From: a virus
Reading direction: 5' to 3' (one strand)
Length of the DNA stretch: 16,838 bases
UHGV virus genome: UHGV-1653291
Positions within the stretch are counted from its first letter, which is position 1; every line of letters begins with the position of its first letter. The position numbers were made by a program. This document shows, in pieces, positions 9,001 through 12,000 of the stretch.

Positions 9001-12000
9001 CTGACGGTTCTGAAAGGCCTGTGTAAAGCTGGTGGGTCAATATTCTTTTCTGGCCGTAGCCGTGGAGAACTGGAAACAGTCCTGAAGCAAACACAAGCGG
9101 CGAGTTCCAAAAGCCGGCTTTATTTTATTGATCATGACGGTTTTACCGCGTTGTACCGGAAGGGGCACTGGTTTTACCAGAAGTTTCACTCTGATGAGGA
9201 AGTGAAGCAGTTGTGTCGTGTACATGGTTTCAGGATTAAGCGGTCAATATTCAACTGTAAGAGCTGGTATTTGCACGTCATTAACGATGATTCCCTTAGT
9301 TGGGCGAGTCTGGAGAAAGCTGTTCGTTTTGAGTTTGAGTTGCCGTTGCCTGGTGGTTCAACAATCGGACGATCTGATGATGTGCTGGCGGCTTTCCGGC
9401 CGTTGATTAAGTAGTGTGTAGGAGGCGCTGGTGGCTGACAGAATTGAGATAAAGATGGATTTTTCTTCTCAGGATATTCAACGACAACTCCAGCGCCTTG
9501 AAGAACGCGAATTGCCGTTCGCAATGGCGCTTGCGGCAACCAGAACGGCAAAGGCTTCTCAGGCTGCGATTAAGAATGAAATTAATCGGGTATTTGACAG
9601 GCCCACGCCGTGGATTCAGAACTCTACTTACGTTTTGGCCGCAAAGAAGAGTGATCCTACAGCCATTGTGTATGCTCGTGAATGGGGAGGAACGCCAGCC
9701 CCTGTAACGTTGACTCCGCAAATCGAAGGTGGCCAACGACAGTACAAACGCTCAGAAGGGGCGCTAAGGGCTGGTGGATATTTGCCTAACGGCTGGCAGA
9801 TTGCTCCTGGTCCCGGCGCAAAGCTGGACAAATACGGGAATATTTCGCGGGGGCAATTACAGCAGGTCTTATCTGGCCTAAGAGTTCAGCGAGATGCGCA
9901 TCAAAATCGCCGTCAGGGCAAGCCTACGGAGTTTTTTGTTGTTCGACCTGGTACAAGTAACCCGCTTCAACCAGGCGTCTGGCAGCGCGTTGGGCGGCGT
10001 CCTACGTTGATCCTTACGTTTATCCAGCAACCTAACTATTCGCAGCGTCTTGATTGGCATGGCGTGGCGCTGCGTGCTGGTGAGGATGCGTTTGCTGATG
10101 AAGTCACAAAGGCTATTGATGACATTCTTTCCAAGACCTTCTCTCGTTAATCATCGTGTGGTTGATGGTGTTGTTATGCAGAGTGTATTCACTGTGTTCT
10201 GTAGCGTCGCTCGCTGGCTGTCTGTGGGGGTGCACGAGCATCGTTTCATCGTCCGGCAGAATTGGGTCCTTCTGGACAAAAGCGTTGGATGCGGGTCATT
10301 CGAACCCCGATATTCGGCTAGCTAAACGTGAAAAAAGTTAGGTTAAAAGTTGCGGTAAAAGAAATTTACTCATCTCATTGAAAAATATCGGGAAAACGTG
10401 ATTTTTTCTGTATTTGTGCTGGTAAAAAGAAAGTGGAAAATTTTCTTTTAGATCATCAAGATACGCGCAGATCTTTAACCAATGTGATGTTGTTCTGATA
10501 AAAATCGTTATAAATCATGCAAATACATCCAATCTTTTAACCAAAACACCATCGCAAGATCCTTTTTACTTATAAAAACTTAATAAAATCAGATAATTAT
10601 GCTGGTTTGTGTGATTTTTCATGAGTAAAAAGATCGTCATTTTTCTCTTTTAGTATCAATAAGTTAAACAGTTTTCTTTAACCTGTTGTGTTATGGCGGT
10701 TAAAAAATGGCTCTAAAAATCGAATATTTACCAGTCGGTAAGTTGCTCAGATATGCCAAAAATTCACGGACTCATTCAGATGAGCAAGTTGAACAGTTGG
10801 TGAACAGTATCCGTGAGTTCGGTTTCACTAATCCTGTGCTGATCGATGAAAAGAATGAACTGATTGCGGGGCATGGGCGGCTTGCAGCAGCCGAAATTCT
10901 GGAAATGGATAAAGTTCCGGCGATTCGGTTGAGTAACCTTTCTGAAAAACAGAAGAAGGCTTACAGGATTGCAGATAACAAGCTGGCCTTAAATGCTGGC
11001 TGGGATATGCAGCTTCTGGCCGAAGAAGTCAAAGAGTTAATGGATGATGATTTTGATATTGATCTGCTTGGGTTTAATGATGCAGAGCTTGACGAAATGT
11101 TAAGCGATGAACAGCCGCAGGAAGAAGACGATAATTCTTCCCCTGTTGTTCAAATTAAGTACCTGGCTATTGATAAAGAACGTATTCCCGCGACGGATAT
11201 GGAAATTGCATTGTTGCTGGATGTTTATCGTCAGTACCACGACGCGCATGAAACGCATGAGGGATTTGTTCAGTATCTTGCTAATGGTTGCAAGTAATGG
11301 CCATCGTCAGTAAGTCAGAGTTTGCCCGCCGGAAAGGTATTTCTCCGGCAATGGTTACGAAGCTCTGTCGTTCCGGTCGCATTCCAGTGCTGAAAAGCGG
11401 CAAGCTGGATTTTGATAAAGCCAGTGCGGCTTATGAAGCGAGCCGACAGGTTGGTCGTGAGGTATCTGCTGAAAATGGAAAAAGAGGGCATGGGATATCT
11501 TCGGAACAACCAGAGTTACCCGCTGATGATGCCGGATTAGCTGGTGGTACTTCCGGTGTTGCGGTGCAATTCAACAAGGCTAAGACCGCAGAAAAAATTT
11601 ATCAGGCAAAGCTGAAACGCCTTGAATTTGAAGAAAAGGAAGGCTCTCTCATCGCTAAAGATGCGGTCAGGGATGATGCATTTCTGGCAGCTAATGAATT
11701 GCGTAGCCGCTTATTTAGTATTGCTCCAAGAGCAGCTCCCCGTTGTGAAGGCAAAACAGCCAGGGAGATCGAGCGCATTATTGAAGACGAGATTAATTTT
11801 GCGCTTCAGGCGCTCCAGGAATCCCGATTTATTAAGCAGGAAGAATAAACCTCATGGGCGAAACAGTATGGAGCACCGCTTTTTTCCGTGCGCTTCGCCC
11901 TAAATCACGGCTAACTGTTTCCGAATGGGCTGATAAGTATCGTCATGTAGCGCCGGGAACGTCTCCAAAGCCAGGGCCGTGGCGTACAAGCCGAGTGCCA

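Follow-up and report, generated by a model that had tools for sequence, protein, structure and literature searches.

A candidate lambda-type cos site with an extended repeat array upstream of the terminase genes of an Escherichia coli phage-plasmid

Introduction

The virus genome UHGV-1653291 (16,838 nt, analysed over its whole length and referred to here as the window) contains a gap of 556 bp, at positions 10151-10706, directly upstream of a group of packaging genes. The question raised by this locus is what function is served by such a stretch, which a sequence-only reading had described as non-coding, AT-rich and carrying a 9-mer that recurs in both orientations, and for which it had offered cosB-type terminase-binding elements or operator sites of a late-gene activator. 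The analysis described here led to the view, held with a probability of roughly two in three, that positions 10262-10706 represent the cos site of an E. coli phage-plasmid of about 48 kb, combining a myovirus tail with a lambda-type head and packaging module, and that this site would be arranged as lambda-type cosQ, cosN and an extended cosB.

Results

Genome ends of related phages point to a cos site

The window was found to be part of a phage-plasmid; the segment 9900-10900 matched 72 of 5426 complete E. coli genomes at 95-100% identity, and all but one of the 73 matching places were plasmid-borne, mostly on plasmids of about 47-49 kb. Escherichia phage vB_EcoM-613R2 was 99.7% identical to the window, and vB_YpM_39, vB_YpM_41 and vB_YpM_44, which were isolated on Yersinia pestis, were about 99% identical. 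The genome records of the latter three are virion-derived. Those of vB_YpM_41 and vB_YpM_39 open with GGTCATTCGAAC (window position 10294) and close at 10293, and that of vB_YpM_44 opens at CCCGATG (10306) and closes with ...GCGGGTCATTCGAAC (10305). The two break points lie exactly 12 nt apart, as would be expected from assemblies of cos phages.

Breaks at the homologous place were also seen in more distant relatives. The record of Vibrio phage XM1 carries the homologous 12-mer GGTGCTCGCGAC at both ends, plus a trailing A, which fits the fill-in of a 5' overhang followed by A-tailing, and the break in the record of phage X29 lies within 1 nt of that of XM1. As deposited (PP580404.1; end of L011 and start of L010), the XM1 record is 13 nt over the unit genome, made up of the duplicated 12-nt cohesive end and a non-templated A. 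Among the IMG/VR contigs found with the small terminase subunit (TerS), eight (L110, L112, L121, L123, L125, L128, L131 and L133) open exactly at the homologous GGT. A ninth, L130 (IMGVR_UViG_3300045988_067343), has at positions 1-21 the Illumina adapter AGACGTGTGCTCTTCCGATCT fused to GGTGCGCGCCAC followed by CCCG; this fusion of an adapter to the left end of cos is an assembly artefact, and as such marks a physical DNA end. In Acinetobacter phage HFM1, the large terminase subunit (TerL) of which is 46% identical, a 5' cohesive end determined with PhageTerm is annotated 183 nt before terS.

As the record ends of near-identical phages and relatives break there, cosN was assigned to the 12-mer listed in Table 1, with putative nicks at 10293/10294 on the top strand and at 10305/10306 on the bottom strand that would leave a 12-nt 5' overhang. 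On this evidence, the gap is very likely a cos site with cosN at this position. A nicking site had been proposed from the sequence for the GC-richer segment 10150-10340, and the breaks in the virion-derived records, as well as the homologous breaks in relatives, fall within it.

Lambda-type elements flank the proposed nicks

The assignment of cosN is accompanied by conserved sequence on either side. The heptamer GGGTCCT, which occurs only once in the 48.5-kb plasmid of strain ATCC 25922, a complete relative of the window element, is found at an identical offset from the left nick (-30..-24) in phage lambda, in XM1 and in a Salmonella plasmid (L093), and at -29 to -32 in the IMG/VR relatives. 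In lambda, it occupies positions 48473-48479, which we take to be lambda's cosQ. To the right of cosN, the window, lambda and the Vibrio phages have the pattern C.CG....T.CG.CTA in common, at the position of lambda's I2 spacer. When aligned at the nicks (marked by slashes), lambda reads ACGGGTCCTTTCCGGTGATCCGACAGGTTACG/GGGCGGCGACCT/CGCGGGTTTTCGCTA and the window reads TTGGGTCCTTCTGGACAAAAGCGTTGGATGCG/GGTCATTCGAAC/CCCGATATTCGGCTA. The whole succession of GGGTCCT, a 12-nt cosN, CCCG..TCGNCTAGMTA and a run of A residues was present in all TerS-related IMG/VR lineages that were readable across the site. The cosQ element has been described as a highly conserved sequence of 7 bp that is required for termination of packaging (PMC4669245).

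The gap is non-coding and exceptionally AT-rich

Only two open reading frames were listed in the gap, 10050-10325 (91 aa, TTG start) and 10156-10341 (61 aa, GTG start). The small open reading frames of the GC-richer left part were rejected as genes, since the 61-aa product had no match in Pfam or PHROG and the alignment of this part to Salmonella relatives contained indels of 29 nt and 8 nt; the gap may therefore be taken as non-coding, as had been read from the sequence. The GC content, 0.47-0.50 across 10100-10399 and 0.28-0.34 across 10300-10699, likewise matched the description of an AT-rich gap with a GC-richer left segment (about 0.48). In the ATCC 25922 plasmid, the gap was the sole 400-nt stretch with a GC content below 0.32. 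A search of 9800-11000 against Rfam at E values up to 1 returned no RNA element, the sole match being a chance fragment of RNase P within the ParB gene, and a terminator scan of 9900-11000 gave one weak terminator-like site, outside the gap.

A repeat array is anchored to cosN

Between 10341 and 10706, nine copies of the consensus RGTWAAARR were located (repeats a to i, Table 1), of which the + strand carries five and the - strand four; their offsets are counted from the right nick (10305/10306). These include all of the 9-mers counted by the sequence-only reading, three direct (repeats d, e and h) and four inverse (a, b, c and i). Its statement that the last pair flanks the ParB start requires correction, as both repeats h and i lie upstream of the ATG at 10707, with the latter abutting it. 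A naive test over the whole window with CTTTTAACC at up to one mismatch was not significant (6 found, 4.96 expected). The more specific GGTWAAARR, however, occurred seven times in 10306-10706, where 0.10 copies were expected, and was absent from the remaining 16.3 kb of the window; none of 2000 dinucleotide shuffles of this AT-rich stretch itself reached seven. An unbiased test gave GGTTAAA as the top 7-mer, with five copies, and a non-low-complexity 7-mer reached five or more copies in only 14 of 2000 shuffles. Seven of the ten GGTWAAARR copies in the ATCC 25922 plasmid were in the gap, the other three being isolated, with no second cluster.

The 9-mer was also conserved in relatives, where the positions and orientations of the repeats are kept across lineages and their sequence changes together with the recognition helix of TerS (see below). 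Offsets of about +36, +50, +117, -168 and -230 (the last two denoting - strand copies) were retained in L093, L106 and L108; L103 had the same set except for +117. In L106 and L108, GGTTAACAA replaces GGTTAAAAG at all sites together. In a comparison with three relatives belonging to the same motif class, invariant positions made up 68% of the motif, as opposed to 37% of other positions beyond +60, and 68% was reached by only 3 of 5000 random placements. Judged by this conservation, the array behaves like a single cis-acting element linked to cosN. The largest array seen, that of L106 (IMGVR_UViG_640753048_000002, positions 1246-1910), extends over 545 nt in the interval separating cosN from ParB and has no fewer than ten GGTTAACAA / TTGTTAACC copies, of which seven are inverted.

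Four GATC sites occur in the AT-rich part, at 10452, 10469, 10557 and 10631, of which the last three directly adjoin repeats as AGATCTTTAACC, AGATCCTTTTTAC and GTAAAAAGATC, respectively; these composites are kept in L093 and/or L103. By analogy with the pac site of phage P1, they suggest a possible link to Dam or phage methylation. Several methyltransferases are encoded by the window element.

A region with these properties could also be a replication origin with iterons, or a centromere for plasmid partition. No other 400 nt of the plasmid is as AT-rich, and the region holds repeats, the four GATC sites and an IHF consensus, with genes named ParB nearby. In an iteron-type origin, direct repeats are bound by Rep beside or within the rep region, and in a parS centromere, sites are bound by a partition ParB encoded together with a ParA ATPase; the array conforms to neither. 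In the window, repA (2291-3271) lies at a distance of 7 kb, and no copy of the motif was found in its surroundings or anywhere else outside 10306-10706. The ParA gene lies elsewhere in the full plasmid (21388-22041) and has been lost from the window element, and the local 'ParB' proteins are ParB/Srx N-domain proteins and not ParA partners. Furthermore, in phages of other genera too, the array keeps fixed offsets from cosN, and the copies in the window are in both orientations. An origin or centromere at this location is therefore considered very improbable. Two other sets of repeats lie near repA, namely an 18-nt direct repeat, TTTTACYGGWGGATTATC, which flanks the gene at 2163-2180 and 3294-3311, and a tandem ACTTTCTTTWWTTAA pair at 3486-3516. 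These are candidate RepA iterons or origin elements, and are unrelated to the cos repeats.

The distal repeats and the possibility of a promoter

With its first repeat at +36 from the nick, the array lies in the interval that separates cosN from the terminase genes, where cosB-type terminase-binding elements would be expected, and sites that are conserved in position and co-vary with the TerS helix are what cosB would show; the proposal of such elements made from the sequence is thus supported. It might nevertheless be that only the proximal copies (+36 to about +120) form cosB and that the distal AT-rich part (about 10450-10706) is a promoter or operator for parB-terS-terL, in which the distal repeats and the IHF site would act as regulator or autoregulator sites. 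Consistent with this, the exact IHF consensus at 10654-10666 is conserved, with exact matches (by eye) at the equivalent place in L103 (TATCAATTGGTTA) and L106 (AATCAATATATTA). There are also conserved blocks other than repeats, including AATAAAATCAG with a -10-like TAAAAT at 10584-10589, with repeat f over the would-be -35 (by eye). In the Vibrio relatives, 140 nt suffices and there is no distal part, and the lysis and late region that lies upstream in the full-size plasmid is absent from the window element, for which a local promoter would be useful. A consensus-based sigma-70 scan of 9900-11000, however, revealed no promoter-like site, and in the complete plasmid no second motif cluster precedes any other operon. 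As the distal copies carry the proximal motif and change with it across lineages, one binder and one functional unit are favoured. A promoter function of the distal part is thus regarded as unlikely, and operator sites for a late activator, the other possibility raised by the sequence-only reading, may exist among the distal copies but are not needed to explain them.

Besides the exact IHF match, a conserved block between repeats b and c, at 10376-10396, is a weak candidate for a bend or an IHF-like site. At this place, L093, L106 and L108 have YAT-N4-TTGATT, which on the - strand deviates from the IHF consensus at a single position (by eye), and the E. coli copy is weaker (TTGAA).

TerS is the favoured repeat-binding protein

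The N-terminus of TerS is predicted to be a helix-turn-helix domain of the DNA-binding type, and its recognition helix (the second helix of this domain) tracks the motif class: SPAMVTKL is found with GGTTAAAAG, SR(P/A)A(V/I)TKL with GGTTAACAA and SHVWVKKL with GTTAACAC. The other protein encoded at this site, a ParB/Srx N-domain protein, has a C-terminus that is nearly identical in both enterobacterial motif classes, and unrelated in Vibrio despite the common GGTTAA core. As the TerS helix follows the motif class and the C-terminus of the ParB/Srx protein does not, TerS is favoured as the binder, and the repeats are probably TerS-binding (cosB) sites.

The sequence-only reading had referred to a Nu1/GpA-type terminase operon, which holds for TerL, a member of the GpA family with 28% identity to lambda gpA (E 2e-62), but not for TerS. 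The latter had no match to Pfam Phage_Nu1 even at an E value of 10, matching only weak helix-turn-helix families, and no BLAST similarity to lambda Nu1; a sequence search of the PDB with TerS also gave no match. In an AlphaFold model of TerS (mean predicted local distance difference test score, pLDDT, of 76), a compact helical domain at the N-terminus was joined by a disordered linker to a C-terminal part that was also helical. Foldseek comparison of this model with the PDB gave no significant match, the best local matches of the N-terminal domain being MerR-type/excisionase winged helix-turn-helix proteins (best E 0.5).

Alternatively, the site could be cos with the ParB/Srx protein (10707-11297) binding the repeats as an accessory packaging or cos-cleavage factor. 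Its gene abuts the array, the last repeat touching the ParB ATG, and every lineage with a multi-copy GTTAAC-type array has a ParB/Srx gene between cos and terS, whereas lineages without it (of the L114 and L120 types) have only one or two sites. This protein, however, comprises only a ParB_N domain and about 60 C-terminal residues, without a match to a recognised DNA-binding family, and the change in its C-terminus between Vibrio and enterobacteria is not paralleled in the GGTTAA core; the helix-turn-helix of TerS, by comparison, differs among all three motif classes. In addition, a ParB-based search of genome contigs gave 80 loci, mostly from Alphaproteobacteria, and in none of these other genomes was the homologue preceded by a window-type cos. 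Binding by the ParB/Srx protein in place of TerS is accordingly thought improbable. It is similarly doubtful that the array and the ParB/Srx protein form a three-component packaging-initiation complex unlike that of lambda, in which the array could serve either to wrap an oligomer of TerS or to load the ParB-like protein, which would then act as an accessory nuclease or NTPase, and might double as a switch turning on the terminase genes. Were this so, cos recognition in the phage-plasmid family would depend on a ParB-fold protein.

Gene context and source element

The features of the site and its neighbours are compiled in Table 1. In the complete ATCC 25922 plasmid (48,488 bp), repA, a ParA gene, an XRE regulator and a lysis cassette are present, followed on one strand by ParB/Srx genes, the cos gap, the genes for ParB/Srx, TerS, TerL, portal, protease and capsid, and myovirus tail genes. 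The order ParB-TerS-TerL is common to the window and the Vibrio phages.

Table 1. Features of the proposed cos site and its surroundings in the window, and repeat arrays of relatives. Offsets of repeats are from the right nick, and signs after offsets give orientation.
Feature	Position	Strand	Sequence or motif	Offset	Remarks
239-aa protein	9431-10150				role not assigned; left neighbour of gap
cosQ-like heptamer	10264-10270	+	GGGTCCT	-30..-24 from left nick
cosN (putative), cohesive-end sequence	10294-10305		GGTCATTCGAAC		record or contig ends of near-identical phages and relatives
Conserved right flank of cosN	10306-10335	+	CCCGATATTCGGCTAGCTAAACG, then A-run		position of lambda's I2 spacer
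Repeat a	10341-10349	+	GGTTAAAAG	+36	invariant in Salmonella relatives and L103; same-offset site in L106, L108 and Vibrio phages
Repeat b	10354-10362	+	GGTAAAAGA	+49
Conserved block between repeats b and c	10376-10396		CATTGAAAAATATCGGGAAAA		weak bend or IHF-like candidate; by eye
Repeat c	10421-10429	+	GGTAAAAAG	+116
Repeat d	10472-10480	-	TCTTTAACC (as read on + strand)	+167	GATC precedes
Repeat e	10534-10542	-	CTTTTAACC (as read on + strand)	+229
Repeat f	10562-10570	-	CTTTTTACT	+257	weaker copy; AGATCCTTTTTAC conserved
Repeat g	10624-10632	+	AGTAAAAAG	+319	weaker copy; then GATC
Exact IHF consensus	10654-10666	+	TATCAATAAGTTA (WATCAANNNNTTR)		one exact match, 0.09 expected
Repeat h	10675-10683	-	TCTTTAACC (as read on + strand)	+370
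Repeat i	10698-10706	+	GGTTAAAAA	+393	abuts ParB ATG
ParB/Srx N-terminal-domain protein, 196 aa	10707-11297	+			Pfam ParB_N E 3.8e-8; phrog_620 E 4.6e-75; between cosB-like array and terS
Small terminase subunit TerS	11288-11848	+			phrog_57 'terminase small subunit' E 7.4e-42; ATG 11297 is the start annotated in relatives
Large terminase subunit TerL, GpA family	11854-13710	+			Pfam GpA_ATPase (PF05876) E 9e-76, GpA_nuclease (PF20454) E 1.1e-84
Array, E. coli window			RGTWAAARR	+36+, +49+, +116+, +167-, +229-, +257-, +319+, +370-, +393+
Array, Salmonella L093			RGTWAAARR	+36+, +50+, +118+, +169-, +231-, +305-, +321+, +372-
Array, L106			GGTTAACAA	+36+, +50+, +118+, +169-, +244-, then five more - copies up to +515	TerS 57%
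Array, L108			GGTTAACAA	+36+, +49+, +117+, +168-, +229-, +365-	TerS 51%
Array, Vibrio phages			GTTAACAC/G	four to five copies, all +, within 140 nt

Three paralogues with a ParB/Srx N-domain are encoded within 4 kb (7418-8041, 8035-9414 and 10707-11297), the middle one fused to a methyltransferase domain, and none adjoins a ParA. A toxin-antitoxin-like pair was noted at 4728-5380, the first gene matching a PHROG 'toxin' family (RelE/ParE in RefSeq relatives) and the second encoding a helix-turn-helix protein. About 16.2 kb of the ATCC 25922 plasmid is missing from the window element; the genes lost are those for ParA, the XRE regulator, replication and recombination, together with the lysis cassette. 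Window positions 2078-5547 correspond to 12856-16325 of the plasmid (L135), and 5427-16838 to 32529-43938, the two blocks overlapping in a repeat of about 120 bp (junction at window 5427-5548) of which a third copy lies at 25904-26019 of the plasmid. The window element thus looks like a repeat-mediated deletion derivative that has kept cos, comparable in size to the 32-kb plasmid NZ_CP024829.1. In another relative, the 57-kb plasmid pN10e (L136, NZ_JBUBMA010000006.1), the block from head to baseplate, spanning the ClpP protease through the baseplate genes, is annotated twice in tandem (16356-41887), which may be either a true duplication or an assembly artefact. An identification of this phage-plasmid family with the 'pSLy3' group was discarded, as pSLy3 is a 114-kb plasmid related to SSU5.

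Discussion

The evidence from genome ends, flanking elements and repeats is best accommodated by a lambda-type cos with an extended cosB. In the mechanism envisaged, the N-terminal helix-turn-helix of TerS (11297-11848) would bind the repeats, probably on bent DNA, and repeat-bound TerS would anchor the GpA-family TerL, which would then nick cosN. Packaging would proceed rightwards, towards parB, terS and terL, and at the next cos, cosQ together with cosN would trigger the terminating cut. The identity of the repeat-binding protein, the involvement of IHF and the direction of packaging are inferred.

For comparison, the cos site of lambda, with its 120-bp cosB of the order R3-I1-R2-R1, was used as defined previously (PMC4669245). 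It resembles the window in its 12-nt cohesive ends behaving as 5' extensions (on the window side, in the records), in having GGGTCCT at the same offset, a similar right flank and a GpA-family TerL, and in repeated sites between cosN and terS, the first of which lies some 36-41 nt rightward of the nick. There are nevertheless several differences from lambda, and points that weigh against the assignment. The cohesive end GGTCATTCGAAC is identical to the GGGCGGCGACCT of lambda at only 3 of 12 positions in register, and as the end sequence differs, the site is not a member of the 'lambda-like cohesive ends' when these are strictly defined. TerS is unrelated by sequence to Nu1 and lies outside its family, with winged-helix matches that are not statistically significant (best E 0.5). 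Lambda has three R sites over 120 bp, against nine repeats over about 370 bp in the window, and the 9-10 sites over 400-545 bp across the arrays are far above this number. Repeats a to c all point the same way, whereas R3 and R2 of lambda do not. For the IHF site that lambda has between the first and second R elements, the weak IHF-like block at 10376-10396, which is better in relatives, may be a counterpart, and the one exact consensus is far off at 10654-10666. In the window, unlike in lambda, a ParB/Srx gene is placed between cosB and terS, and long multi-copy arrays were seen only in lineages that also encode this protein. Finally, the distal copies may have a regulatory role, the ends are taken from the opening points of database records and contigs, evidence that is indirect but replicated, and cleavage and protein binding at the site are deduced from sequence.

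Some of these differences have counterparts elsewhere. Lambda-like phages have R sites in both orientations, and phage N15 has a distal inverted accessory site, rR2 (PMC4669245). Like the window element, N15 is a plasmid prophage; both have a proximal site at the R3 position, for TerS in N15 and probably also in the window, with inverted sequence about 200 bp further to the right, and rR2 is a precedent for accessory inverted sites (PMC4669245). However, N15 has a single critical proximal site, R3, and one distal site, the latter inside terS, whereas the sites in the window are many and all intergenic, and the ends of N15 are close to those of lambda, which those of the window are not.

The Vibrio phages X29, phi 2, Rostov 7 and XM1, for which a family 'Weiviridae' has been proposed (PMC11432961), are true relatives. 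Their TerL is 62-66% and their TerS about 42% identical to the window proteins; the genes at their left end follow the order ParB-TerS-TerL, and cosQ, cosN and the flank are homologous, as are repeats with a GGTTAA core present in both. They differ in their cohesive end (GGTGCTCGCGAC), in their repeats, which number four to five copies of GTTAACAC/G, share one orientation and fit within 140 nt, and in lacking a long AT-rich extension.

With the pac site of phage P1, the window shares a cluster of short repeats adjoining packaging genes, and GATC sites lie beside several of the window repeats. P1 pac contains GATC-containing hexamers. P1, however, packages by the headful mechanism with PacA and PacB, whereas the defined 12-nt ends and the GpA terminase of the window indicate cos packaging. 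In the literature, neither 12-mer was found in a phage context, no paper was found on the cohesive ends of X29, the papers on XM1 and vB_EcoM-613R2 made no mention of cos, and no published description of cos was found for this phage-plasmid family. As a type of element, a lambda-type cos is ordinary, and the unusual parts are only the extended cosB and the intervening ParB/Srx gene.

The assignment would fix both the site of packaging and the ends of the genome in a phage-plasmid family that is present in at least 72 of 5426 complete E. coli genomes and that also infects Yersinia pestis as a free phage. Knowledge of cos would allow genome records to be oriented correctly, and could be used to predict which deleted plasmids, like the window element, remain packageable by a helper, and to design cosmid-like vectors or transduction assays. 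The heptamer and its spacing have persisted at 28% TerL identity to lambda while TerS and cosB have been replaced, which supports the notion that TerL reads cosQ and cosN and that TerS reads cosB.

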